Shown: piece after piece, positions 748 through 17,138 of the stretch | How positions within the stretch are numbered: the first letter of the stretch is position 1 | Layout: every line of letters starts with the position of its first letter | Source of the DNA: Marinilabiliaceae bacterium | GTDB taxonomy: Bacteria > Bacteroidota > Bacteroidia > Bacteroidales > VadinHA17 | DNA: 64,000 nt | Direction of reading: 5' to 3' | Assembly (NCBI GenBank): GCA_036350795.1 | Contig: JAZBNV010000046.1 | Location: forward strand, 3,089-67,088 | The notes under the pieces: generated by a model | What the model saw: only the letters and a program-made list of their open reading frames with translations | Database searches by the model: none | Told to the model about the DNA's origin: nothing | Program-made: the position numbers and the translations under genes

Positions 748-1977
748 ATGAAATTCACCGAGTTTAAAATACATGAAGATCTGCTGAATTCAATCTCCTA
801 TATGGGTTTTGAAGAGGCCACCCCGGTTCAGATAAAGGCAATCCCTGTAATCCTTGAAGGAAAGGATCTTATTGCCTGTGCACAGACAGGTACAGGAAAA
901 ACCGCAGCATTTGTTCTTCCCATCCTCGATCGCATTGCCCGGGAGCGATATAGCGGAACCAGTACACTGATTATAGTACCCACAAGAGAGCTGGCCATTC
1001 AGATCGACCAGCAGATTCAGGGAATAGGATATGTGCTGGGCCTTAATTCAATAGCAGTATATGGCGGAGGTGACGGGGAAGACTGGGGCCTTGAAAAAAA
1101 GGCACTTAGCTCTGGTGCAGATATAATAGTTGCTACTCCGGGTAAATTGATCTCGCACCTTAATATGGGATATGTTAAGTTCGATAAAATAAAACACCTG
1201 GTTCTTGACGAGGCAGACAGAATGCTCGATATAGGATTCTTTGAAGACATCATAAAGATAATTTCCTTCCTGCCAAAACAGAGACAAACCCTTATGTTCA
1301 GTGCCACAATGGCCCCTAAAATAAAAAAACTTGCAGCACAAATTCTTGTCGACCCCTTCGAAGTAAGTATTGCCGTATCCAAACCGGCCGAGGGGGTATT
1401 ACAGGCAGCTTATCTTGTATTCGACAACCAGAAGCCCGGCCTGATAGATTATCTTATCTCAGACAGACCTGATTATGAAAGTATCCTGATTTTCTGTTCA
1501 ACAAAGAAAAAAGTGGCCGAAATAGCAAGACTGATTAAAAAAACTGAAAAAGAAACTGAGTCTATTTCATCGGATCTTGAGCAGTCGGAGAGAGAAAGGG
1601 TAATGTTACGATTCAAGGCCAGGAAGACCAGGATACTGGTTGCTACAGATGTATTAAGCAGGGGTATTGATATAAAAGACATTAACCTGATAATTAATTA
1701 TGATGTGCCGGGTGATGCAGAAGATTATGTACATCGTATTGGTCGTACGGCAAGAGCCGACGCTACCGGTGTAGCACTTACTTTCATTAATCCCGACGAC
1801 ATGTATGCTTTTTCGAAAATAGAAAAGCTAATTGAGAAGGAAGTCTATAAAATCCCCTTACCCCCGGAGCTGGGAGAGGGACCTGAATGGAAAGTAAGCA
1901 CGAGCCCCGGAAGAAATTACAGGAAAAAACAAGGAAGACCTAAAGGTAAGCAACACGGATATAAAGCAGGAAAATGA
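748..1977 (+). CDS. DEAD-box ATP-dependent RNA helicase (RhlE-like)
   Basis: Q motif TPVQ, AQTGTGKT, PTRELA, DEAD, SAT, HRIGRTARA; basic C-terminal tail. Confidence 0.95.
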   Translation: MKFTEFKIHEDLLNSISYMGFEEATPVQIKAIPVILEGKDLIACAQTGTGKTAAFVLPILDRIARERYSGTSTLIIVPTRELAIQIDQQIQGIGYVLGLNSIAVYGGGDGEDWGLEKKALSSGADIIVATPGKLISHLNMGYVKFDKIKHLVLDEADRMLDIGFFEDIIKIISFLPKQRQTLMFSATMAPKIKKLAAQILVDPFEVSIAVSKPAEGVLQAAYLVFDNQKPGLIDYLISDRPDYESILIFCSTKKKVAEIARLIKKTEKETESISSDLEQSERERVMLRFKARKTRILVATDVLSRGIDIKDINLIINYDVPGDAEDYVHRIGRTARADATGVALTFINPDDMYAFSKIEKLIEKEVYKIPLPPELGEGPEWKVSTSPGRNYRKKQGRPKGKQHGYKAGK

Positions 1978-2735
1978 ATAGAGTCAGAACACTTATTATT
2001 TCTTTTATTTTTATAGCCTTTCTGAACCCTTTTGCCAGGTCGCAGGCCTATGTATCTGTTAGCGACCTTTGTTACCAGGCTTATACAAAAGGCAAGGTTG
2101 AATTGTGGGAGCAGGCCTTATCTTCTGCAGTGGAGATGCACCAGGGCACAGACTCCGATAGTAGCCTGCATCAGTTAATTCTGGTTCAGTATGGTTTTAC
2201 GGCTTATTGTATTTCGGAGAAACAAAAAGAAAGGGCAGAAGAAATACTGGCAGCAGCATATGGTAATCTGGATTACCTTATGGCTAAAGATGCTGAAAAC
2301 GCAGAATATATAGCCCTGAAAGCTGCTTTTCTGGCTTTTGAGCTGAACATACACCCACTTAAAATGACAAAACTGGCGCCGGCATCAATTGAACTGACAG
2401 ACCTGGCCTTTAAAAAGGACTCCAGCCTGCTTATGTCGCTCTCATGCAAGGCCAATATGCTGAATTTTACACCCAGAATTTTTGGAGGTAATCCCGACAG
2501 GGCCATACCTTTCTATTATCGTATAATTGAACTATTTGAAAATGAGGATGTTTATACTAAAAACGACTGGAGGTATATTAATACGCTGGTGATACTTGCA
2601 GATACCTATAATAAAAAGAAAATGTATAATGAGGCCTGTGGTGTATATGAGAGAATAATTAAACACGACAGTACAATAAACTGGGTAAATAATAAATTAT
2701 ACCCTGAATGCAGGGCAAAGCTTGAAAATGAGTAA
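1974..2735 (+). CDS. Secreted helical/TPR-like hypothetical protein
   Basis: Signal peptide (RS/Q), Ala/Tyr-rich helical repeats; ATGA overlap with the helicase stop. Confidence 0.6.
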   Translation: MNRVRTLIISFIFIAFLNPFARSQAYVSVSDLCYQAYTKGKVELWEQALSSAVEMHQGTDSDSSLHQLILVQYGFTAYCISEKQKERAEEILAAAYGNLDYLMAKDAENAEYIALKAAFLAFELNIHPLKMTKLAPASIELTDLAFKKDSSLLMSLSCKANMLNFTPRIFGGNPDRAIPFYYRIIELFENEDVYTKNDWRYINTLVILADTYNKKKMYNEACGVYERIIKHDSTINWVNNKLYPECRAKLENE

Positions 2736-2785
2736 TATAAGTTATCGCCCTTTACTCTAAAAAACCGGATATCAAAAATAATGGC

Positions 2786-2793
2786 TAGCTTTG
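2786..2793 (+). promoter_or_regulatory. -7 element TAGCTTTG for the acyl-CoA ligase gene
   Basis: Exact TAnnTTTG match. It overlaps the TTG used by the ORF track, so the true start is ATG 2821 or 2830. Confidence 0.55.
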
Positions 2794-2820
2794 CAGGGCC
2801 ATACATGTATCACAATAACG

Positions 2821-4479
2821 ATGAAAGCAATGGAAAATAAAATATTAACAATTAAGGATATACTTGAGCATTCCGTAAATAAATTCGGAGAAAGAAATGC
2901 TTTTTCTTTTATTGACGAGGAAGCCATCACTTACGAAAAAACAGGTAACACTGTAAAGTCTTTGCAGCTCTTACTCGAAAAACTGGATATCAGCAAGGGA
3001 GACAGGGTAGCAATATACGCCCAGAATATGCCAAACTGGTCGATAAGCTATTTTGCCATTGCTGCCATGGGAGCAGTAGTGGTACCAATACTCCCCGACT
3101 TCTCGGTTGAAGAAGTCGGTAATATACTGAATCATTCAGAAGCCTCGGCAATATTTGTTTCGGAAAACCTTGCCTCAAAGACGGCAGAAATAAATCTAAA
3201 AATTCCTGTTATAGGAATTGAAGATTTTAATCTTATTTCAGGTGCCGGGACGAATATTGAATATAATGAAAAGGAATTTTCTTCATTAACATATAAGGTC
3301 GATCCCGAGGATCTTGCGGCTATCATCTACACCTCGGGCACAACAGGCAAGTCAAAAGGAGTAATGCTTTTAAACAGGAATATTGCTTCCAATGTGCATC
3401 AATCAAAAGGGATGCAGGACATCAATGAATACGACAGGTTTATTTCTCTCCTGCCCCTGTCGCATACCTTCGAAAATACTGTTGGCATGCTGGTTCCCTT
3501 TATGAGCGGTGCAAGTATTACCTATCTTAAAAAGCCACCCACTGCCCCTGTTCTGCTTCCTGCTCTTGAAAAAATCAAGCCAACAGTACTGGTATCAGTG
3601 CCCCTGATTATTGAAAAGGTCTATTTCAGCAAAATCAAGCCCACATTAACTGCCAATAAATTAATGAGCACCCTGTATGCCTTTCCCCCGGTGCGAAAAG
3701 TACTGCACAGCCTAGCAGGCAAAAAGCTCTATAATACCTTTGGCGGACAGCTTAAATTTTTTGGTATTGGAGGAGCCAAGCTTAACAGGAAGGTTGAGCT
3801 ATTTCTGAAAGAAGGAGGCTTTCCCTACGCAATAGGATACGGTCTTACCGAAACTTCACCTGTGCTTGCCGGTATGGTTCCGCGGAATAAATACAAGCTT
3901 CAGTCAACCGGTACAGCTGTTGAAGACGTGCAGCTAAAAATAAATAATCCCGACCCAAAAACAGGTGAAGGAGAAGTATGGGCAAAGGGTCCGAATATTA
4001 TGAAGGGTTATTATAAGGAACCGGGCTTAACATCAGAAGTTCTGACTGAGGATGGCTGGTTCAGAACAGGTGATCTTGGAGTATTTGACAGGAACAATTA
4101 CCTTTCAATTAAAGGAAGACTTAAGAATGTAATTATTGGTGCTAGTGGTGAAAATATTTACCCCGAAGAAATAGAATCAGTAATAAATAATTTTAAACAT
4201 GTTATTGAATCGCTTGTAATCCACCATAAGGGTAAACTCGTAGCTCTGGTCCATATTAACAGGGAAGAACTTGAGGAAAAATACAGGGACTTCAAGGAAG
4301 AAATGACGAAAAAAGTTGAGGAGAGTATAGAAGAAATACTTGCAGAACTTCATCACCAGGTAAATACAAGAATAAGTAAGTTTTCAAGACTTCATAAAGT
4401 TGTATTACAGCCTGTTCCGTTCCAGAAAACAGCTACAATGAAAATTAAGCGCTATTTATATCACCAGGTAGAGATTTAA
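2821..4479 (+). CDS. Long-chain-fatty-acid--CoA ligase (AMP-binding, FadD-like)
   Basis: YTSGTTGKSKG, GYGLTET, GWFRTGDLG, GENIYPEEIE; start moved from 2791 to the first ATG. Confidence 0.9.
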   Translation: MKAMENKILTIKDILEHSVNKFGERNAFSFIDEEAITYEKTGNTVKSLQLLLEKLDISKGDRVAIYAQNMPNWSISYFAIAAMGAVVVPILPDFSVEEVGNILNHSEASAIFVSENLASKTAEINLKIPVIGIEDFNLISGAGTNIEYNEKEFSSLTYKVDPEDLAAIIYTSGTTGKSKGVMLLNRNIASNVHQSKGMQDINEYDRFISLLPLSHTFENTVGMLVPFMSGASITYLKKPPTAPVLLPALEKIKPTVLVSVPLIIEKVYFSKIKPTLTANKLMSTLYAFPPVRKVLHSLAGKKLYNTFGGQLKFFGIGGAKLNRKVELFLKEGGFPYAIGYGLTETSPVLAGMVPRNKYKLQSTGTAVEDVQLKINNPDPKTGEGEVWAKGPNIMKGYYKEPGLTSEVLTEDGWFRTGDLGVFDRNNYLSIKGRLKNVIIGASGENIYPEEIESVINNFKHVIESLVIHHKGKLVALVHINREELEEKYRDFKEEMTKKVEESIEEILAELHHQVNTRISKFSRLHKVVLQPVPFQKTATMKIKRYLYHQVEI

Positions 4480-6906: not shown

Positions 6907-8505
6907 TTACTTTTGCTGCTTCTTGTCAGGAATAAACGACATAGCCCTTTCTGATATAGCCACTATGCTAAGGGCCGGATTTACTCCGGGGTTTGCAGAT
7001 ATCACTGATCCGTCACAGATCAGCATGTTTTTGTATCCAAACACCCTGTTACGGCTGTCAATAACTCCTTCTGTGGCATCTTTACCCATTACGGCACCTC
7101 CAAGTATATGTGCAGTAGAAGGTATGCCTAATAGAGGCTCCTGTGCCATTACATGAGGTCGCCCGTTTGCAAGGCGTCCGAACCTTTTAGCCAGGTCTTC
7201 AGCTTCAGGCATAAATGGAGTGGGACTATCTCCTGCCTGGACCGACGATTTAAGTCCAAACCTGCCTTTTCTAAGTCTTAATGTACTGTCAAGGTGCTGC
7301 ATAAATAAGAGTATCTGTGTTCTGGCAGCAAAATTTCTTATAAACAATAATTTTATTGAACGAAGAGGGCTGCCAAACCACAGCAGCATCATTTTAAAAA
7401 TCCTTACAAAAACATTCTTTCCAAGAGTAAAGGGCAGCATTGTAATTCTCCAGAAGCCCGAGCCTTCTGCATACCTTACGGGTTCAAGGTGACTGTTTTC
7501 ATCTGTATGCAGTATTGATCCTATAGCTATTCCCTTTGAAAAATCCTTGCTTTTATCAAGGCTTACCACGCCAATCAGGCTTTCGTTGTTTGTCCTGATA
7601 TCCTTCCCGAGCATATCAGAGATACCCGGAAGGCTTTCTTTTTTAAGACTGTGCATAAGACTGACAGTACCAAGAACACCCCCGGCGAAAATAATTCCTC
7701 CTGCCCTGATGCTATAATGTCTTTTTCGTATCCCGAAAGAATTACGGTAGCTAACAATATAGCCCTCTGAGCCATCTTTACTGCCTCCGGGCAGAATACC
7801 TGTTACCGTATTTTCTGCCAGTATCTCTGCTCCCTTTTTTCTTGCCAGCCAAAGGTAATTTCTATCGAGGGTATTTTTTGCTCCGTGCCTGCAACCGGTC
7901 ATGCAGCCTCCGCAGAAAGTACATCCGCTAACATCCGGGCCTTCACCTCCGAAATATGGATCAGGAACAGGTTTTTCTGCTTCACCAAAGTTCACGGCCA
8001 CCCTGGTGGCTTCGAAATATTCTTCACGTCCCAGCTCTGCTCCGAGCTTCTTAAGCAGAAGATCTCCGTCTTTCAGCTCAGGATTCTGTTCAGCACCAAG
8101 CATTTTCCAGCCCAGCTTATAATAGGGTTCCAGCTCTGTTTGCCAGTCGCACAATTTTGCCCAGCTGCCCGATTTAAAGAATTGTTCCCTGGGTATGGGA
8201 AGTGTATTGGCATAAACCAGCGAACCTCCTCCCACACCGGTACCTGAAAGTATTGTTGCATGCCTTAAAAAGGTGATCTTCATAATTCCCCTGAAACCCA
8301 GGAAGGGTACCCATAGCCAGCGCCTGAGGTTCCAGTTTGTTTTCGGGAAATCGTCTTTCCCGAACCATTTCCCCTTTTCGATTACCAGTACCTTATATCC
8401 TTTTTCTGAAAGCCTCAACGCACATACCGAAGCTCCAAAGCCTGAGCCGACTATAACATAATCATATACTTTAGCTCCCCCGGCCTGTACCCCGGCGACT
8501 ACCAT
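6907..8505 (-). CDS. GMC-family FAD oxidoreductase, cholesterol oxidase ChoD-like
   Basis: GSGFGA FAD motif, GVGGGSLVYAN, CTFCGGCMTGC, AHILGG, DGS..NPGVNP. Confidence 0.8.
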   Translation of the reverse strand: MVVAGVQAGGAKVYDYVIVGSGFGASVCALRLSEKGYKVLVIEKGKWFGKDDFPKTNWNLRRWLWVPFLGFRGIMKITFLRHATILSGTGVGGGSLVYANTLPIPREQFFKSGSWAKLCDWQTELEPYYKLGWKMLGAEQNPELKDGDLLLKKLGAELGREEYFEATRVAVNFGEAEKPVPDPYFGGEGPDVSGCTFCGGCMTGCRHGAKNTLDRNYLWLARKKGAEILAENTVTGILPGGSKDGSEGYIVSYRNSFGIRKRHYSIRAGGIIFAGGVLGTVSLMHSLKKESLPGISDMLGKDIRTNNESLIGVVSLDKSKDFSKGIAIGSILHTDENSHLEPVRYAEGSGFWRITMLPFTLGKNVFVRIFKMMLLWFGSPLRSIKLLFIRNFAARTQILLFMQHLDSTLRLRKGRFGLKSSVQAGDSPTPFMPEAEDLAKRFGRLANGRPHVMAQEPLLGIPSTAHILGGAVMGKDATEGVIDSRNRVFGYKNMLICDGSVISANPGVNPALSIVAISERAMSFIPDKKQQK

Positions 8506-9428
8506 TGCTCGAGTATCTGTATTCTTTCAGCAATAGGCGGATGCGTGGCAAACATTGAAGAAAAAGAAGCTTTTTTCTTTTTATCTCCCGGATTTTCAAT
8601 AAACATCTGTGCTACATCCTGTCGCGTTACCGCTTCAATTCTTGCATCCGAAGAAACTTTCCTGAGAGCTGAGGCAAGTGCCCCCGGCTTATGAGTCAGT
8701 TCGGCAGCTCCGGCATCAGCCATATACTCCCTCTTGCGCGAAAGTGCAAAACGAAACAGGGTCGAAAGCAGCCATCCAATTGCTGCCAGCAGCATTATAA
8801 TTACAAGGGCAGCACCATTTTTATTATTCCGCCTTCCTCCGCCGTACATAAAAGTACGCAAAAGGGCCTGTGTGATAAAAGCGAATATACCCACAAAGAC
8901 TATCGACACGATAAGCAACCTCACATCCCTGTTTCTGATATGCGTTAACTCGTGTGCTATAACTCCTTCCAGCTCATCGTCATCCAGCTTATCAATTATA
9001 CCCCTCGAAAGAGAAATTGTATAGCTTTTATTACTAATTCCGCTTGCAAAAGCATTCAGGCTGTCGTCTTCAATAATATTAACTTTTGGCATCTTTTGTC
9101 CAACCGACATACATAGATTCTCAACCAGGTTATAAACTCTCTTGTTTTCTGTTCGTTCGAGAGGACGGGAGCCGGTAGCGCGGTTTATCATTGTGCTATG
9201 CGAAAACCAGGCAATAATAAACCACAAAGCAACGGCTACGGTTACAAGCGGTAGAGTGCGAAGAGAACTTTGAACAGGATTGGATATTACATCCTCTTCC
9301 TGGAAAAAATCAAAAAGGAAATAGAACACAAAAACAAGGGCATAGAATACAAGTGGGAACATAATGAGCAGAAGCACAGACCTGAAATTATTCTTCCAGA
9401 TCTGTGATTGTAGTCCTACATATTTCAT
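8499..9428 (-). CDS. htpX: HtpX-like M48 membrane zinc metalloprotease
   Basis: NAFA, HELTH (HExxH), REYMAD, THPP motifs and TM segments. Confidence 0.85.
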   Translation of the reverse strand: MKYVGLQSQIWKNNFRSVLLLIMFPLVFYALVFVFYFLFDFFQEEDVISNPVQSSLRTLPLVTVAVALWFIIAWFSHSTMINRATGSRPLERTENKRVYNLVENLCMSVGQKMPKVNIIEDDSLNAFASGISNKSYTISLSRGIIDKLDDDELEGVIAHELTHIRNRDVRLLIVSIVFVGIFAFITQALLRTFMYGGGRRNNKNGAALVIIMLLAAIGWLLSTLFRFALSRKREYMADAGAAELTHKPGALASALRKVSSDARIEAVTRQDVAQMFIENPGDKKKKASFSSMFATHPPIAERIQILEQW

Positions 9429-9434
9429 TTCTTA

Positions 9435-9998
9435 CTAGTTAAAATCAACCCTGGGAGGCTCCTCCATTTGTTCCCTTCTCTCACCGAGATCGAACATGGG
9501 CTCCTTCTTAAAACCAAACATACCTGCCACAATGTTTGAAGGAAAAGATTCAACTGCTACATTAAGTTCTTTTGTAGCAGAATTAAAGAAGCGTCTTACG
9601 GCTGCCAGTTTATTCTCAACATCAGATATTTCTTCCTGGAGATTCATAAAATTCTGATTTGCCTTCAGGTCAGGGTAGGCTTCTACGGCTATCTGTATAC
9701 CTCCCAGTGCACTTGAAAGTGCAGATTCTGCAGCAATTTTTTCATTTATTGACCCGGCCCCCATGGCTCTTGCCCTGGCATTGGTTACCTCGGTCAGCAA
9801 ATCCTTTTCATGCTTCATATATCCCTTCACGGTGTCAACCAGGGTAGGAATAAGATCATGACGCTGACGTAGCTGAACATCAATGTCGGCAAAAGCATTT
9901 TCACGGTTGTTCCTTAGTCTTACCAGCCTGTTATAAGCAGAAATAAGAAAAAGACCTATAAGAACAACCAGTACAATTACAATAATTAATCCTGTCAT
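9435..9998 (-). CDS. lemA: LemA family protein
   Basis: N-terminal TM, YNRLV, RHDLIP, EAYPDLKA, EDVENKLAAVRRFFN, FPSN. Confidence 0.92.
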   Translation of the reverse strand: MTGLIIVIVLVVLIGLFLISAYNRLVRLRNNRENAFADIDVQLRQRHDLIPTLVDTVKGYMKHEKDLLTEVTNARARAMGAGSINEKIAAESALSSALGGIQIAVEAYPDLKANQNFMNLQEEISDVENKLAAVRRFFNSATKELNVAVESFPSNIVAGMFGFKKEPMFDLGERREQMEEPPRVDFN

Positions 9999-10129: not shown

Positions 10130-10894
10130 ATGAATTTCAAATACGCAATATTAAGAAAGCCGTCTAAAAGCCTTTCCGGTGGACTTCGAAGTGTTGATTA
10201 CGGTGACCCCGATTATAAACTGGCTCTTGTGCAACACAGTGCCTATATCCTGGCTTTGCAGGAATGCGGACTGGAAGTAACTATCCTGGAGCCTCTCGAG
10301 GAGTACCCGGATTCAGTATTTATTGAAGACGTGGCCCTCTGTACACCCGGGGGTGCCATAATATGCAAACCAGGGGCAGGCAGCAGGAAGGGAGAAGAAA
10401 TACATATAGTTAATGCTATCCGACAGCATTTTCAGCAGCCTGGTATAATTATTTCTCCGGGAACAGTTGAGGCAGGAGACATAATGATGGCAGGAAAACA
10501 TTTCTATATTGGCTTATCGCAACGGACAAACAGGGAGGGTGCAGAACAGATGATTGCGGCACTGGAAAAATATGGATTCAGCGGATCATGTATCCCGCTG
10601 AAAGGTATACTTCACCTTAAAACAGGTATTTCCTACCTTGAGAACAACAATATTCTTTGCTGGAAAGAGATGTCGCTTTTACCCGAATTCAGCCAATACA
10701 ATAAATTAGTAGTGCCCGATAATGAGAAGTACGCGGCCAACAGCGTTTGGATTAACGGTACCGTGCTTGTTCCCCGCGGAAACCCGGTAAGCGAAAGACT
10801 GATTAAAGAGCACGGCTATAATACTATTGCCCTTGATATGAGCGAATTCAGGAAACTGGACGGGGGCTTAAGCTGCCTGTCCCTTCGTTTTTAA
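10130..10894 (+). CDS. Dimethylarginine dimethylaminohydrolase / amidinotransferase family
   Basis: PDSVFIEDVA, EAGD, LHLKTG and C-terminal DGGLSCLS with the catalytic Cys. Confidence 0.88.
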   Translation: MNFKYAILRKPSKSLSGGLRSVDYGDPDYKLALVQHSAYILALQECGLEVTILEPLEEYPDSVFIEDVALCTPGGAIICKPGAGSRKGEEIHIVNAIRQHFQQPGIIISPGTVEAGDIMMAGKHFYIGLSQRTNREGAEQMIAALEKYGFSGSCIPLKGILHLKTGISYLENNNILCWKEMSLLPEFSQYNKLVVPDNEKYAANSVWINGTVLVPRGNPVSERLIKEHGYNTIALDMSEFRKLDGGLSCLSLRF

Positions 10895-11319
10895 AATGTA
10901 AGAACCTTATAGCCTTTCTTTAGATAATCAGACAGAACACTGCCCATACCTTTTACATCAACACCAAGATTCCCCAGATCGTCATCCACACCATACATCC
11001 TTGCACAGGCTATACATGCTTCCGTTTTTATTCCTATTTCCTGCATTTTCTCAAGTTCTTCCTGCAGCTTCAGGTTTTCAGAAAGAAGCTTTGCAGAAGG
11101 ACCCCAGATAATAAAGCATACTTCGTCAAACCAGCGTGCTTTTTTAGCATTATATACATACATAAAAACCATCTTTTCAGCAACTTCCAGGTCTCCGCTG
11201 GTCCACACAACAACAAGTTTATCATTACCGGGTTCCTTTTCTGCTTTCTCTGTCGCTCCCTGGCCTGATGCTGCCAATGAAATAAGCAGGAATAATGTAA
11301 TTTGAATTATTTTCTTCAT
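10891..11319 (-). CDS. DsrE-family protein with N-terminal signal peptide
   Basis: IIWGPSAKL, EACIACA and YGV motifs; likely start MKKIIQITLFLLISLAASG/Q at 11319. Confidence 0.7.
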   Translation of the reverse strand: MKKIIQITLFLLISLAASGQGATEKAEKEPGNDKLVVVWTSGDLEVAEKMVFMYVYNAKKARWFDEVCFIIWGPSAKLLSENLKLQEELEKMQEIGIKTEACIACARMYGVDDDLGNLGVDVKGMGSVLSDYLKKGYKVLTF

Positions 11320-11329
11320 TTCACATTTA

Positions 11330-12025
11330 TTAGGTTCTGTCATTTAAATCCTTTCTTTTCATATCTGCAATTTCCTGAAGTTCGTGCGACAGGAAAACAG
11401 TTTTTTCATCATTTCGTACCAGCAGTTCTATCATTGCTCTTGCAACATCCCTTCCGTGTATCGCCCTGTAAAATTTCAGCTTGCCTATCAGTAAAAAAGA
11501 AAAGATCTTATAAAAAACTATAGCTGCTTTTTCCATAGGCCTTGATTCCTTCCTTTCTCCAAGTAATAATGAGGGACGGGCAATAAGCACTTTCTCAAAT
11601 GGAAGTTTTTCAATCCCTTTTTCCATTTCTCCCTTTATTCTGCTATAATAAGATCCTGAATTTTCATTGGCCCCCAGGGATGAAACAACAGCAACTTTTT
11701 TTACCCCTCTGCTGAGGGCAGCCTCTGCTATATTCACAGGCATATCCCTGTCAAGTTCTTCGTAACGTTTAATCGATCCTGCCTTTTTCCTGGTTGTGCC
11801 GAGGCAGATAAAAAGATCGTCGCCCCTCAGCTTATCGGCATAAGAAGCTACATCTTCTACATCTACAACATGTTCAATAAGCTTAATATGCTCGATATCA
11901 AGCTTTCTCCTTGTAAATGATTTAATTGCGGTATATCCCATATTCTGGATGAGTTCCTCAACCAGGTAGGTTCCAATAAGGCCTGTTGCCCCAAAAACTA
12001 TTGCTGTTTTATTTACCATCATCAT
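11330..12025 (-). CDS. NAD(P)-binding atypical SDR (CC3/TIP30/YraR-like)
   Basis: VFGATGLIG, CLGTTR, YSRIKGEME, RPSLLLG. Confidence 0.85.
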   Translation of the reverse strand: MMMVNKTAIVFGATGLIGTYLVEELIQNMGYTAIKSFTRRKLDIEHIKLIEHVVDVEDVASYADKLRGDDLFICLGTTRKKAGSIKRYEELDRDMPVNIAEAALSRGVKKVAVVSSLGANENSGSYYSRIKGEMEKGIEKLPFEKVLIARPSLLLGERKESRPMEKAAIVFYKIFSFLLIGKLKFYRAIHGRDVARAMIELLVRNDEKTVFLSHELQEIADMKRKDLNDRT

Positions 12026-12043: not shown

Positions 12044-12105
12044 AAAGGGGGACTTCCTTGTCCCCCTTTCCACGCCCGGGCGTGGTCTCTTATGTAAGGT
12101 AAGAG
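12044..12105. repeat. Three consecutive intergenic inverted repeats
   Basis: AAAGGGGGAC-N6-GTCCCCCTTT (12044-12069), palindrome CCACGCCCGGGCGTGG (12070-12085), CTCTTA-N7-TAAGAG (12087-12105). Confidence 0.7.
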
Positions 12106-12108
12106 GTT

Positions 12109-13428
12109 TTATAATCCACTAAAATCAACATCCCTGAATACCAGGGTCGGGGTTCTCCATGATGAATTTTCATATGCATCATTTCCTGTTTCCTCAAGGT
12201 TCATCCACAGATCTTTCATATTCCCGGTAATATTCATTTCCGAAACAGGCTGAATCTCTTTTCCCTTTTCAATAAGAAAACCTTCTATCCCATATGAGAA
12301 GTCGCCGGTAGCCCCGTTTGTATTTCCCCCGTTGAAGCCGGTTACCAGGATGCCCCTGTCAATGGTTGAAATAAGCTCTTCAGGTGTCCGGGTTCCTGTT
12401 TCAAAAACCAGATTGCTTATGCTGCCTGAAGTTGGCTCCATACCAAGCTTTTTGCCATAGTAAGTGTCAATAAAGTAGCTTTTCAAGACACCTTTTTCAA
12501 AAACTTTTCTTTTAGTCAGGGCAAGTCCTTCGTTATCGAAATGCTTTGATCCGCGCCCCGAGATAAGAGTCGGGTCGTCTGTAAGACTAAGTTTATCTGA
12601 TCCAAACTTTTTGCCTTTGCTATCAACAAGAAATGAATTTTTCTGCTGAATTGCAGACCCGTTAAGGGCAGAAATCACAGGCGACAATAGCTGGCCGGCC
12701 AGCCTGTTCTCAACTATCATCTTCATTTTACCCGAGGCAATCTTTTTCTGACCAATCTTCCTCTTTGCTCTTAATAATGCAGTCTTTGCCAGTCCTTCGC
12801 TGTTGAGCTTAGAGTGAAAAATCGTGCTTTCACTCCAGCCCGACTGGGGCCTTGCATCGCCACCGTCAACAGATACAGAAGCATAAACCCCAAAGTAAGA
12901 GCCCGAACTGTCTCCTTTAAAACCATTACTTGTAAGCATAACACTGTTGCTCATTCCATCTGAGTAACTGGCTGTTACAGATATAATCTTATCATCTGTC
13001 CCGATAATTTCCTTTTCAATGGCAAAAGCAGTATCAATTTTCGACCGCGGATCAATCGTCTCAATCTCCGAATCGTATGTTTTAAGGTCCTTGCCATCTC
13101 CCTTGTAATATAAGGCAGGATCAGGCAGGGTTCTGTATTCATCCTCTGAAAGATACCTTGTTCCCTCGATGGCCTCGCTTATAAAGCGGGCCAGTTCGTC
13201 CTTGTTGTTCAGCCTGTTGGTTGAATGAACAGAATACTTATTATCTACAAAGAGTTTTATGGATAATCCGGACTGGTTTTCCTGTTCCAGTTTATCAATC
13301 TTATTGTCTCTCACCTCAACGCTGCTGCTTACACTGCTGAATATACTTACAACTACTTCCCGGGCTCCGTTATCAAGAGCCGTCTGCATGGCCCATTCTG
13401 CAAGATCATATTTTTCTTTGATCGTCAT
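12109..13428 (-). CDS. pmbA: TldE/PmbA non-catalytic subunit of the TldDE metalloprotease
   Basis: FDNEG, GDFSYG and TPTL motifs; no HExxxH; directly downstream of tldD. Confidence 0.85.
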   Translation of the reverse strand: MTIKEKYDLAEWAMQTALDNGAREVVVSIFSSVSSSVEVRDNKIDKLEQENQSGLSIKLFVDNKYSVHSTNRLNNKDELARFISEAIEGTRYLSEDEYRTLPDPALYYKGDGKDLKTYDSEIETIDPRSKIDTAFAIEKEIIGTDDKIISVTASYSDGMSNSVMLTSNGFKGDSSGSYFGVYASVSVDGGDARPQSGWSESTIFHSKLNSEGLAKTALLRAKRKIGQKKIASGKMKMIVENRLAGQLLSPVISALNGSAIQQKNSFLVDSKGKKFGSDKLSLTDDPTLISGRGSKHFDNEGLALTKRKVFEKGVLKSYFIDTYYGKKLGMEPTSGSISNLVFETGTRTPEELISTIDRGILVTGFNGGNTNGATGDFSYGIEGFLIEKGKEIQPVSEMNITGNMKDLWMNLEETGNDAYENSSWRTPTLVFRDVDFSGL

Positions 13429-13468
13429 TTTACTTAATTTTTAAAATTTGCTTTTGCATTAATTAAAT

Positions 13469-14995
13469 CTAGGCATTTGTACCACCAACTGTAAGCTTCT
13501 TAACAAGTACGGAAGGAAGTCCGCATGTTACTGGTACCGATTGTCCTCCTTTTCCGCACATCCATGTTCCGTTATCAATCAGGTAATCGTCGGCAGCCAT
13601 TGATATATCTGCAAGTGCCTGCGGTCCGTTGCCAATAATGTTAATATCCTTTATCGGCTGTGTAAGTTTTCCCTTTTCGATAAGGTAACCAGACTTTACA
13701 AAGAAGGTAAAGTCTCCTGCGCCGATTTTAACCTGCCCATTGCTGAAATTATCGACATAAACACCATAATCAACACTGGAAAAAAGATCCTCCCGTGAAT
13801 CAGGCCCTGTTTCCATATATGTAGATCTCATGCGTGGCAGAGGAATATACCTGAAAGATTCCCGTCTGCCATTGCCCGTTGGATTAACATTATAATATTC
13901 AGAGCTGATCCTGTCATGTATATAGCTGTTAAGGACTCCATCCTTAACCAGGTAGGTTTTTTCCACATCGTTGCCTTCATCATCCACATTCAGAGAACCC
14001 CGGTTATTGGTAAGGGTGCCGTCGTCAATAATATTAATAAAGCTTTCTGCTATTTTCTTGCCCATCTTATCGCTGAAAATTGATTCTCCCTTACGGTTGA
14101 AATCAGCTTCGAAGGTATGGCCTATTGCCTCGTGCAAGAGGATTCCGGATCCGCCCGCCCCCATTACTACAGGCATTTCGCCTGCCTTTGGCTTAACTGC
14201 TTCAAAAAGAATATTTGTTCTGTCGACAGTTTCCTTTGCAAGCTCCCCGATAAGTTCATCGCTTAACCATTCAAAGCCCTTCCTGAAAGAGCGGGCAGAA
14301 TAGTTACTTTCAACCTGCTTGTCTTTTTGCATGGTTGACACAACACCAAAACTTACAAGAGGCCTGTAATCCCAGGTAAGCCTGCCTTCAGAATTATAGA
14401 ACAAAACATAGGATGTTTCGTCGTTAAGAAAGGCATTTACCTTTATAAGTTTGTCGTCGAGCGCAAAAACCCTGTCGTTTATTTTCTGAACAAAGGGTAT
14501 TTTATCTTTTACAGAAACATCTTCCCATTTACGGTCAATACGGTAGTATTTTCCGGGCACTTTTTCATCTATTCTGCCTGTTGTAAATTTATTCGGACTA
14601 TTGGCAATCTCTGCAGCCATTTTTGCAGCTTTCTGCATGGCTTCCAGGCTAACTGTTTCAGAATAGGCAAAGCCGGTCTGGTCACCATTCAAAACCCGTA
14701 TTCCCACTCCATAATCTATATTGGAGAAGGCCCTGTTAACCTTACCGTCTTCAAGGCCCAGGCTGTTACTTATCTTATGCTCAAAAAACAGGTCTGCATA
14801 TGTTCCTCCTTTCGACATTGCAGAAGATATTACTTTTCTTAATGTTTCGGCCGAAACTTCAAAATGTTCGAGGTAGCTTTTCACGTCAGGATTTAAATGT
14901 AAATTATTGCACGATTTTAAGAAAGGTGGCAGCAACACTGTCCCTGCTGCAACAGCCCCTCCGGTTTTAATAAATTTTCGTCTGTTAAGGTTCAT
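13469..14995 (-). CDS. tldD: TldD metalloprotease with Tat (and probable lipoprotein) signal
   Basis: LLHEAIGHTFEAD, TGNGRRES, PRMRSTY, CGKGGQ; N-terminus NRRKFIK...LKSC29. Confidence 0.9.
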   Translation of the reverse strand: MNLNRRKFIKTGGAVAAGTVLLPPFLKSCNNLHLNPDVKSYLEHFEVSAETLRKVISSAMSKGGTYADLFFEHKISNSLGLEDGKVNRAFSNIDYGVGIRVLNGDQTGFAYSETVSLEAMQKAAKMAAEIANSPNKFTTGRIDEKVPGKYYRIDRKWEDVSVKDKIPFVQKINDRVFALDDKLIKVNAFLNDETSYVLFYNSEGRLTWDYRPLVSFGVVSTMQKDKQVESNYSARSFRKGFEWLSDELIGELAKETVDRTNILFEAVKPKAGEMPVVMGAGGSGILLHEAIGHTFEADFNRKGESIFSDKMGKKIAESFINIIDDGTLTNNRGSLNVDDEGNDVEKTYLVKDGVLNSYIHDRISSEYYNVNPTGNGRRESFRYIPLPRMRSTYMETGPDSREDLFSSVDYGVYVDNFSNGQVKIGAGDFTFFVKSGYLIEKGKLTQPIKDINIIGNGPQALADISMAADDYLIDNGTWMCGKGGQSVPVTCGLPSVLVKKLTVGGTNA

Positions 14996-15111: not shown

Positions 15112-15912
15112 TTATTCCGGTTTTCTTTCAAGCAGCTCAGGCGTTTGAATCATTCTTTTAACATACCTGAACAACCTGCCGCCGTGCGAAGCATCAACCA
15201 CCCTGTGATCCATTGCCACGCTTAAGTTCATAAGTCGCCTGGGAACTATTTGATCATTCACAACTGCCGGTTTCTTATATATTCCACCCATTGTAAATAC
15301 AATTGCAACATTCGACGTGGGGAAAAGAGCCGGGTAGCCCACATCCAGGCCTACCGTACCTATATTGGCCACCACGAATGAGCCATAGTTGTTTGCCGAT
15401 ATACCTGCAAAAGAGTAGCCCCAGCTTATTGTTATTAGCTTTATCAGCTTGTAAAACCATCTTCTGAAAGGCCAGGGTATCCGGGCAAGCATACCCTTTT
15501 TTCTCATCTCCCTGTTTTCTTCCCCCGACCTGGTTTCTTTAATTTTTTCAGAAAGGAATTCCGACAATTCTGAAAGGGTCATAAACTCTGCCGACGGAAC
15601 TTTTACAGAACTCATTTCATCTCTCTGGATCATTACACTTATCATTGCATCAACGCTTTCCTTGTGTACTATCCTGCCTCTGCGCACATAAGTATTCAGT
15701 TCCGGAACTTCAAATTTTAAACCTCTTGCAAAAATAAGGGTGAAAATATGTGTCGGTGTTATTTTCAATCCCTCTTTCCTCTTATTTGTAATGTACTTTT
15801 CAAGATCAGTAACATCCACCTCAACCGATCCAAGCATCTTGGAATCAACGGGTTTATTATAAATTGTAGATGCTACTACCCTCCAGTCTGTATTAAAGTT
15901 TATATCTGACAT
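15112..15912 (-). CDS. Stand-alone 2-oxoacid dehydrogenase E2-like acyltransferase catalytic domain
   Basis: DHRVVDA His motif and GSFVVANIG; only 266 aa with no lipoyl or E3-binding domain. Confidence 0.75.
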   Translation of the reverse strand: MSDINFNTDWRVVASTIYNKPVDSKMLGSVEVDVTDLEKYITNKRKEGLKITPTHIFTLIFARGLKFEVPELNTYVRRGRIVHKESVDAMISVMIQRDEMSSVKVPSAEFMTLSELSEFLSEKIKETRSGEENREMRKKGMLARIPWPFRRWFYKLIKLITISWGYSFAGISANNYGSFVVANIGTVGLDVGYPALFPTSNVAIVFTMGGIYKKPAVVNDQIVPRRLMNLSVAMDHRVVDASHGGRLFRYVKRMIQTPELLERKPE

Positions 15913-16058: not shown

Positions 16059-17138
16059 TCAAATACTCTTCAGTGCTTCTTCGAAAAATGCCAGCACATT
16101 TTCAGTTGGAGTGTCGGGTTGTATATTATGTGCCGGAGCAAGTATATAAGCACCCTCTGCACCAAATATATTCTTAATCCTCCTGAGGTGCTGTATTACC
16201 TCCTCCCTGCTGCCGAAGGGCAAAATATTCTGAATATCCACACCACCAAAAAACATTAATTCATGCCCGAATCTATTCTTCAATGATTGAGCTTCCATAT
16301 CCTTTGCAAGTGGCTGAATCGGGTTAAGTATATCAAGGCCTATTTCTATCAGGTCAGGAATAACAGGAATAAGCGAACCGCAGCTGTGATAGGCAATTTT
16401 AATATCAGGATTCAGCTTCTTAATCCTGGAAAAGATATATTCCATCCTGGGTTTGAAGTGCTTTCTCCAGAGATCAGGATCCAGCATCATCCCCGACTGG
16501 TTTCCAATATCATCTCCTGTCCATACAATATCTGCCCCCATTTCAACCATGGTAATGATGTGTGCCAGGTTTATCTCCATTACGCGGTCCATTAGCTCAA
16601 ATATGTATTTTCGTTCCATCAGCAGGTCCATCAGGAATTTTTCAAGGCCTGTCATATACCACGATAGTTCCAGAATAGTGCACTCCTGTTCGGCTATAAT
16701 GGCAAAATCTGAAGCATACTTTTGCACCTGTTCACGGGCAAGAGCAAATTTATCTGTACCTGAGGGATCGGGAAAATTATAAGAGATTATATCGTTTACA
16801 GTCTCTGCATGCTCAAGGGGATGGATGGCCATTTCGCTGTATACCCCGGTATCAATCCAGCCAATTCCCCATTCATCAATAACAATATTATTCTCCCGCT
16901 TCAGTGTAAATCCGTCGGGCCTTCCTGCTGCAATACAAACACAGTCATTCCCCAGGGTAAGCAGGGTATTGGTAAAAGATACCCTTGTCGATAGAAAAGA
17001 ATCAACCGCTTTCTCTGCAGGCAAGCCCAGGTGGGCACAAAGCCTTTCCCCTGCCTGGGGTGTAAAACTGGCAAAAACAGGAGGCCTGTCTACTTTCTGC
17101 CTGTTAATTGCCCTGAGTACTCGTTCCCTTGAATTCAT
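16059..17138 (-). CDS. Uroporphyrinogen decarboxylase (URO-D/MtaA-CmuA) superfamily protein
   Basis: DRPPV, DEWGI, GDDIG, YHSCG, LNPIQP, FGGVD, PAHNIQ. Confidence 0.8.
   Translation of the reverse strand: MNSRERVLRAINRQKVDRPPVFASFTPQAGERLCAHLGLPAEKAVDSFLSTRVSFTNTLLTLGNDCVCIAAGRPDGFTLKRENNIVIDEWGIGWIDTGVYSEMAIHPLEHAETVNDIISYNFPDPSGTDKFALAREQVQKYASDFAIIAEQECTILELSWYMTGLEKFLMDLLMERKYIFELMDRVMEINLAHIITMVEMGADIVWTGDDIGNQSGMMLDPDLWRKHFKPRMEYIFSRIKKLNPDIKIAYHSCGSLIPVIPDLIEIGLDILNPIQPLAKDMEAQSLKNRFGHELMFFGGVDIQNILPFGSREEVIQHLRRIKNIFGAEGAYILAPAHNIQPDTPTENVLAFFEEALKSI

Follow-up and report, generated by a model that had tools for sequence, protein, structure and literature searches.

Our analysis of a 64,000-nt stretch of contig JAZBNV010000046.1 (the window, to which all positions below refer unless another contig is named) indicates that the TldD/PmbA (TldE) metalloprotease encoded there is likely exported as a folded heterodimer by the twin-arginine translocation (Tat) pathway, with the export signal on the catalytic subunit TldD only and the non-catalytic PmbA carried along as a hitch-hiker. 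A sequence-only reading of the same DNA had proposed such a Tat-exported TldD with a signal-less partner. The proposal is supported by the conservation of the twin arginine among orthologues, by signal-less partners at 25 of 25 loci, by the Tat genes of the genome, and by published proteomics that place the signal-less PmbA orthologue of Bacteroides thetaiotaomicron, BT_3649, in outer-membrane vesicles (OMVs). Both open reading frames (ORFs) described in that reading were recovered, 40 nt apart on the minus strand (Table 1).

Signal and partner in the window pair

TldD starts with MNLNRRKFIKTGG (also given as MNLNRRKFIKTGGAVAAGTVLLPPFLKSC), that is, with M-N-L-N-R-R-K-F-I-K followed by a Gly/Ala/Thr/Pro-rich hydrophobic region (h-region), TGGAVAAGTVLLPPFL, and then K-S-C. 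This is a motif of the S/T-R-R-x-F-L-K kind in front of a moderately hydrophobic h-region, as expected of a Tat substrate. The first 40 residues scored alone reach 26.9 bits against the Pfam hidden Markov model (HMM) TAT_signal (cut-off 22.7) and 19.9 bits against TIGR01409 (cut-off 16.7), and the twin-arginine stretch NRRKFIK pointed out earlier is present. TldD is longer than E. coli TldD by about 31 N-terminal residues, and residues 1-31 are the sole low-confidence segment of its structural model (predicted local distance difference test, pLDDT, below 50), with a lone helix at 5-19. Given this low pLDDT, and since the remainder superposes on E. coli TldD, the N-terminus is a separate addition of about 31 residues that lies outside the fold. 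A loose detector of Tat N-termini, run over the whole genome, flagged 28 of 3169 long frames, mostly plausible Tat substrates, so that a Tat-like motif is not common background here. The organism's use of Tat appears quite heavy (about 28 candidate N-termini); many of the flagged candidates are Gfo/Idh/MocA-type oxidoreductases, and an Fe-S protein is also among them.

PmbA starts with MTIKEKYDLAEWAMQTAL, at the first conserved helix of the protein, as do 12 other partners of Tat-bearing TldDs. Its N-terminus matches neither TAT_signal nor TIGR01409, and a longer form is impossible because an in-frame TAA stands 5 codons upstream of its ATG; the stop and the null HMM result together uphold the earlier statement that the adjacent PmbA is signal-less. 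The protein has no HExxxH, matches E. coli PmbA (PDB 5NJ5_B) with E = 2e-41, and is a close orthologue of B. thetaiotaomicron BT3649 (PDB 1VPB; E = 3e-143). As a homologous partner without HExxxH, encoded 40 nt downstream of tldD, it has the features by which TldE/PmbA proteins are recognised.

The enzyme itself looks intact. All three PmbA_TldD Pfam domains (PF01523, PF19290, PF19289) score above cut-off in TldD, and three domains are likewise found in PmbA. TldD matches E. coli TldD (PDB 5NJ5_A) with E = 6e-101 over residues 58-506, and in Foldseek its AlphaFold2 model (mean pLDDT 90.4; predicted template-modelling score, pTM, 0.87) matches chains A and C of 5NJ5 with a template-modelling (TM) score of 0.95 and a root-mean-square deviation of 1.6-1.7 Å. 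In E. coli TldD, His262, His267 and Cys454 are the metal ligands, while Glu270, Asp272 and Lys456 are structural residues by which the clamp is tethered (Ghilarov et al. 2017, PMC5810440). Residues H288, E289, H293 and C480 of the window protein align with that site, and E296, D298 and K482 are the aligned equivalents of the latter three residues. The metal-ligand motifs HEAIGH and CGKGGQ, which the sequence-only reading had called intact, are so borne out by their alignment to E. coli HEAVGH and CGKEGQ. Among 26 Tat-bearing TldDs, H288, H293, E296 and D298 are invariant and E289 and K482 nearly invariant. Against the NCBIfam equivalog NF008006 ('metalloprotease TldD') the window protein scores 382.6 bits, below the 513-bit cut-off, and our tree places it in a clade other than that of the proteobacterial TldDs; judged by its sequence, it is a member of the family without being an E. 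coli-type equivalog.

The genome (3.5 Mb, 95.8% complete, with best matches that point to Prolixibacteraceae) encodes a Tat translocase: a profile search recovered TatC (224.8 bits) and two TatA/B/E-family (TatA) genes. It also holds a second tldD-pmbA pair, at 1489-3021 and 131-1465 on the minus strand of contig C10 (locus L003). The second TldD, TldD2 (510 aa), starts with MKNDRYMVRDIPRRKFLEMSLKGGLVMASTPALLSQLVSC and reads RRKFLE...LVSC, and its partner PmbA2 (444 aa) is signal-less. TldD2 falls in a clade distant from that of the window TldD; in the TldD2 clade, each of the 7 proteins placed on the tree retains RR-x-F with an h-region behind it. At its 95.8% completeness, the genome yielded no signal-less TldD.

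Conservation and evolution of the signal

The sequence-only reading had named loss of the twin arginine in orthologues as an observation that would count against it. What we find is retention: 118 of the 119 full-length homologues at 76% identity or more (the close homologues) have RR, the remaining one having RS, and RR-x-F is kept in 110 of 111 Bacteroides-type homologues. The sole close orthologue with R-S for R-R, P0003 (85% identical; MNLNRSSFLK), may have lost export naturally or may reflect an error of sequencing. Of the 130 full-length top matches (31-48% identity) from a search of 1.84 billion representatives, about 30 carry RR and an h-region. Diverse TldDs with a signal are 500-520 aa long, as against 455-490 aa for those without, and F8 of the motif is nearly invariant in the Tat-bearing ones.

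For a survey of loci, 80 named genomic loci were retrieved and 79 analysed, and a Tat-type TldD is found in 27 of these, one of which (L046) is a doubtful call. Within Bacteroidota they come from Prolixibacteraceae relatives, Tannerellaceae, Parabacteroides distasonis, Carboxylicivirga, Bacteroides and Rikenellaceae, and beyond it from Ignavibacteriota, Myxococcota, Fidelibacterota, Eisenbacteria, Aminicenantes and some Pseudomonadota metagenome-assembled genomes (MAGs), which makes at least six phyla overall. The pmbA gene is visible at 25 of the 27 loci; there it invariably follows tldD directly, on the same strand, and encodes a protein without a hydrophobic N-terminus (maximum 12-residue hydropathy at most 1.36); the signal thus sits on one subunit and never on the other, as in Tat hitch-hiker complexes. 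The spacer between the two genes ranges from -79 to +62 nt in related loci. Regular-expression matches that seemed to give PmbA a signal of its own, in L043, L047 and L078, proved to be artefacts of over-long starts or internal RR pairs. At L037, in an uncultured Bacteroidales MAG, the Tat-type tldD frame is 425 aa long and is followed by a 263-nt gap to pmbA, which points to a frameshift or a faulty assembly.

The signal is clustered on a tree of 191 TldDs, with 20 changes compared with about 46 for shuffled labels, and the well-supported branches force at least 11 state changes. These forced changes, together with the placement of this genome's two pairs in distant clades, rule out a single origin of the signal; combined with its loss in close orthologues (see below), they suggest that the compartment of the enzyme has switched repeatedly. 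The E. coli-type proteobacterial clade is without a genuine signal, its lone flagged member (P0147) being a regular-expression false positive.

Export route and its alternatives

The window pair can be linked to published fractionation data through B. thetaiotaomicron, and this link is new. TldD of that species, WP_236092573.1 (513 aa, 58% identical to the window TldD), starts with MDRRNFLKTGGIALLGSLATGSAMA followed by LTT; its signal has a textbook RR motif and ends in an A-x-A site with no Cys, for which reason the protein is predicted to be soluble. Its gene lies 31 nt upstream of that for a 439-aa PmbA, which matches 1VPB (BT_3649) at 438 of 439 residues, and we equate WP_236092573.1 with BT_3648 since length and annotation ('putative modulator of DNA gyrase') agree. 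Table S2 of the vesicle study by Valguarnera et al. (2018, PMC6222051) places BT_3649, although typed 'Cytosol', on the 'OMVp-enriched proteins' sheet, as one of 3 proteins in 122 (2.46%) with that type. Its mean peptide counts are 1.75 in the inner membrane (IM), 0.5 in the outer membrane (OM), 8 in the OMV pellet and 30 in the OMV Sarkosyl supernatant, with log2 ratios of 5.2 for OMV pellet/OM, 9.1 for OMV supernatant/OM and 6.7 for OMV supernatant/IM (PMC6222051). For BT_0766, the soluble periplasmic protein that served as the study's OMV-lumen control, the corresponding counts are 1.75, 0.75, 5.5 and 66 (PMC6222051). The fractionation profile of BT_3649 matches that of this control, a point that the authors pass over without comment. 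In vesicles, 30 peptides covering 61% of BT_3648 have been identified, and its in vitro vesicle/cell ratio is about 0.8, as compared with about 0.06-0.3 for EF-Tu, PckA and GAPDH and more than 10 for OMV lipoproteins (Stentz et al. 2022, PMC9397113, Table S2), although the ratio is weak evidence because the two tandem-mass-tag sets were normalised separately. A paper on the OM and secretome of B. fragilis does not mention the pair.

How could a subunit without a signal reach the periplasm? To our knowledge, an obligate partner that lacks a signal can follow its Tat-signal protein into the periplasm by one established route only, co-translocation in a folded complex, and it is for this reason that we take folding, metal loading and pairing in the cytoplasm, followed by export on the TldD signal, as the likeliest course. 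TldD would be synthesised with its twin-arginine signal, would fold and acquire its metal in the cytoplasm, and would pair there with signal-less PmbA. The closed heterodimer, whose roughly 100 kDa lie within the size range of known Tat cargos, would then cross the inner membrane through TatA/TatC on the signal of TldD alone. Once in the periplasm, it would thread unfolded peptides into its shell and cut them processively to short pieces, as the E. coli enzyme does, with imported oligopeptides or envelope peptide waste as possible substrates. There is a reason for assembly to precede export, since E. coli TldD is inactive without TldE, and since the heterodimer is very stable while the TldD homodimer is unstable (PMC5810440). 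Our own analysis shows the signal and how well it is conserved, the partner without a signal, the Tat machinery, the intact catalytic residues and the fold, and the vesicle data support the export end point for the B. thetaiotaomicron orthologue only.

Several observations weigh against export of the pair. Scored at full length, TldD reaches 22.3 bits against TAT_signal, slightly below the cut-off of 22.7; TldD2 is called by neither Tat HMM, and BT_3648 falls under the cut-off in both. Signal-less Bacteroidales orthologues exist (L015, L018, L020, L021, L023 and L035, from Dysgonomonas, Muribaculaceae and other MAGs), with 54-62% identity (44% for L035), an adjacent PmbA where the locus shows one, and stop codons just upstream of the TldD start. 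A search of these orthologues for signals hidden by a frameshift or in an alternative frame found no RR in any frame, and their existence suggests that the enzyme is able to function in the cytoplasm. TatC is present in all of the approximately 25 Tat-TldD genomes tested; it is, however, nearly universal, occurring also in most genomes with signal-less orthologues, so that its presence is a necessary condition only, and the TatC phylogenetic profile was dropped as a discriminating test. (In the signal-less set, the L018 genome, a partial 1.5-Mb MAG, gave no TatC match, and Dysgonomonas gave a partial one over model positions 1-66.) Moreover, the OMV-enriched sheet lists the signal-less BT_3649 but not the catalytic BT_3648, and it must contain some contamination, since ribosomal S21 and KduI, both clearly cytoplasmic, are listed as well.

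The alternative that survives best lies within the export model and differs in anchoring only: signal peptidase II would cut before Cys29, leaving the exported pair as a lipoprotein tethered to a membrane that faces the periplasm. We consider this possible though rather unlikely; the window TldD might otherwise be cut by signal peptidase I or stay anchored. A Cys is indeed present at the end of the h-region, as the sequence-only reading had noted, but FLKSC, with its Lys at -2, fits neither the classical lipobox nor a rule in the style of PROSITE PS51257, so that the window TldD lacks the conserved lipobox of signal peptidase II substrates. The Cys is kept in 86 of 119 close orthologues (72%) and replaced in the other 33 by Phe (28), Trp, Tyr, Gly or Asp. 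A lipobox ([LVI][ASTVI][GAS]C / PROSITE PS51257) occurs in 75 of 118 close orthologues, which fit a PROSITE-like F-[LM]-Q-S-C, and in 9 of 22 diverse Tat-bearing representatives, which have canonical boxes such as LAAC, LSGC and LTGC; the LVSC of TldD2 also fits the classical L-[ASTVI]-[GAS]-C. Against these stand the Bacteroides-type orthologues, with a lipobox in only 7 of 110 and no Cys in about 94%, the A-x-A site that B. thetaiotaomicron TldD has instead, the recovery of its PmbA mainly in the Sarkosyl-soluble vesicle fraction, as for a soluble lumen protein, and the absence of an acidic surface-export motif after Cys29. Since the Cys and lipobox counts differ among close, diverse and Bacteroides-type orthologues, lipid anchoring of TldD would be a variable trait, doubtful for the window protein. 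The membrane-anchored '(lipo)' TldD of the earlier reading is thus unsupported as a family feature, the Cys being missing in 28% of the close orthologues and in most of the Bacteroides-type ones.

We think it improbable that the vesicle signal of B. thetaiotaomicron PmbA is independent of Tat, arising from lysis, contamination or another non-classical route, in which case the proteomics would be silent on hitch-hiking. The two clearly cytoplasmic proteins on the OMV list and the absence of BT_3648 from it would be explained in this way; but the cytosolic type is given to only 3 of the 122 entries, very abundant proteins of the cytoplasm are absent from these, and BT_3649 ranks top of the three and mirrors the lumen control BT_0766. 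Quite improbable, too, is export of TldD alone, with PmbA left behind in the cytoplasm, where it might, for instance, help in assembly or act as an escort, and with periplasmic TldD acting by itself or as a homodimer. PmbA is, after all, signal-less, and an archaeal TldD homodimer is described as active in work cited in PMC5810440. However, this alternative has to contend with the inactivity of E. coli TldD without TldE and the instability of its homodimer, with the tight coupling of tldD and pmbA at 25 of 25 loci, and with a B. thetaiotaomicron PmbA orthologue that is enriched in vesicles rather than retained in cells. The least probable alternative, that the N-terminal extension is no export signal or a mere relic, with TldD and PmbA both residing in the cytoplasm like their E. 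coli counterparts, could draw on the full-length HMM score and on the close orthologues without a signal, but it is at odds with RR-x-F and an h-region kept in 118 of 119 and 110 of 111 homologues and across clades only 31-48% identical, with a peptide that by itself clears both curated cut-offs, and with the vesicle data for BT_3649 and BT_3648.

Related systems and the surrounding locus

With E. coli TldD/TldE (PDB 5NJ5 series; PMC5810440) the window pair shares family, fold, the HExxxH plus Cys site, the Glu/Asp/Lys residues, and a catalytic subunit with its non-catalytic partner encoded alongside. The E. coli proteins are cytoplasmic and signal-less, whereas the window TldD has the added Tat-type signal, its genome is seemingly without a signal-less copy, and no context of microcin, CcdA or ribosomally made, post-translationally modified peptides (RiPPs) is seen. 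Among Tat hitch-hikers, DmsAB and similar enzymes are known cases. The precedent that we follow is hydrogenase-2 of E. coli (Rodrigue et al. 1999, J Biol Chem 274:13223, as cited in PMC9251779). Such cases likewise have a twin-arginine signal on one subunit, and the signal-less partner is carried in a pre-assembled folded complex; they are, however, mostly redox enzymes with complex cofactors, while the window pair is a peptidase with a simple metal site, for which we propose co-translocation. BT_3648/BT_3649 form an orthologous pair with the same TldD-only signal, the same gene order and LemA a few kb downstream; they differ in a signal that ends in A-x-A without a Cys, where the window TldD has Cys29 in a poor lipobox, and in their upstream neighbours, folP and cdaA. 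The signal-less Bacteroidales orthologues belong to the same orthologous clade and have an adjacent PmbA where visible, but without the N-terminal signal they are presumably cytoplasmic, so that the compartment switches within one clade.

The literature has regarded TldD/E as a protease of the cytoplasm with housekeeping and microcin-processing roles (PMC5810440, PMC10885120). We found no description of TldD/PmbA export or of a periplasmic location in the full-text literature, where a mention in a 2022 family review (Microbiol Res 265:127186) is possible. A known enzyme family and a known export mode would together give the family a new and widespread compartment, and this compartment is likely real. 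More generally, and with less than even confidence, we propose that a repeatedly arisen set of TldD/E proteins is periplasmic across phyla, namely in Bacteroidota (including the human-gut Bacteroides and Parabacteroides), Ignavibacteriota, Myxococcota and other phyla, and in both pairs of this organism; that it is the first peptidase class with a Tat-hitch-hiking second subunit; and that it shreds envelope oligopeptides, e.g. peptides imported by TonB-dependent/SusCD-type systems or released signal peptides, into pieces fit for uptake across the inner membrane. If a large share of the family is indeed periplasmic, the roles assumed for TldD/E need revisiting in many phyla, and pipelines that type PmbA partners as 'cytosolic' would be wrong there. 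The short list of Tat hitch-hiker cargos would gain a cofactor-poor closed-shell protease of about 100 kDa and, with it, a clean non-redox model for co-translocation. Peptide shredding in the periplasm could also matter for how Bacteroidota use proteins and peptides in the gut and in sediments. The idea is directly testable in B. thetaiotaomicron, which encodes the same pair, offers good genetics and has its PmbA structure solved (1VPB).

Table 1. Features of the tldD-pmbA locus (window positions; aa, residues of the encoded protein)
Feature	Position	Strand	Description
tldD	13469..14995	-	508-aa ORF; catalytic subunit of the TldD/TldE metalloprotease (MEROPS M103, formerly U62); N-terminal Tat-type signal
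Signal region, aa 1-29	14909..14995	-	Twin-arginine n-region, h-region TGGAVAAGTVLLPPFL, c-region KS, then Cys29
Twin-arginine motif N-R-R-K-F-I-K, aa 4-10	14966..14986	-	Direct reading of the sequence
HEAIGH, aa 288-293	14117..14134	-	Metal-binding HExxxH with catalytic Glu; aligned to E. coli HEAVGH
CGKGGQ, aa 480-485	13541..13558	-	Cys480, third metal ligand; Lys482, clamp-tethering; aligned to E. coli CGKEGQ
Spacer, tldD stop to pmbA start, 40 nt	13429..13468		Holds the in-frame TAA 5 codons before the pmbA ATG
pmbA/tldE	12109..13428	-	439-aa ORF; non-catalytic partner; no signal peptide, no HExxxH
GC-rich palindrome CCACGCCCGGGCGTGG	12070..12085		Shortly after the pmbA stop; candidate end of the transcription unit

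No canonical terminator was found after pmbA, and the palindrome CCACGCCCGGGCGTGG is terminator-like on the plus strand only, with no T-run on the minus strand, so that its role is uncertain. The Bacteroidota -7 box (TAnnTTTG) was not found in the 116-nt region upstream of tldD. No gene neighbourhood conserved across related loci was found, and no RiPP cluster; the one recurring gene is LemA, in the closest relatives and in B. thetaiotaomicron, and larger neighbourhood clusters turned out to be antisense shadow ORFs inside tldD/pmbA. The earlier remark that no RiPP precursor lies nearby holds for precursor and modification genes alike, and this lack fits a housekeeping role.

The further neighbours described here lie on the minus strand. 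A LemA gene followed by one for an M48 (HtpX-like) membrane metallopeptidase occupies 8499-9998; LemA stands a few kb downstream of the pair in the window, in L008/L009 and in B. thetaiotaomicron (L088), a weak trace of synteny. The gene at 10891-11343, which overlaps the start of the next gene by 14 nt, encodes a DsrE/DsrF-like protein; export is possible, since its N-terminal segment, IIQITLFLLISLAASG, is hydrophobic. Just upstream of tldD, 15112-15912 encodes a 266-aa protein that corresponds to the C-terminal catalytic part only of a 2-oxoacid dehydrogenase E2 acyltransferase, with PF00198 at residues 177-261 and no lipoyl domain. Beyond it, 16059-17138 encodes a protein of the uroporphyrinogen decarboxylase (URO-D) fold, whose best scores are to MtaA/CmuA-type methylcobamide methyltransferase models, far below their cut-offs, a match that is unexpected for a Bacteroidota genome.

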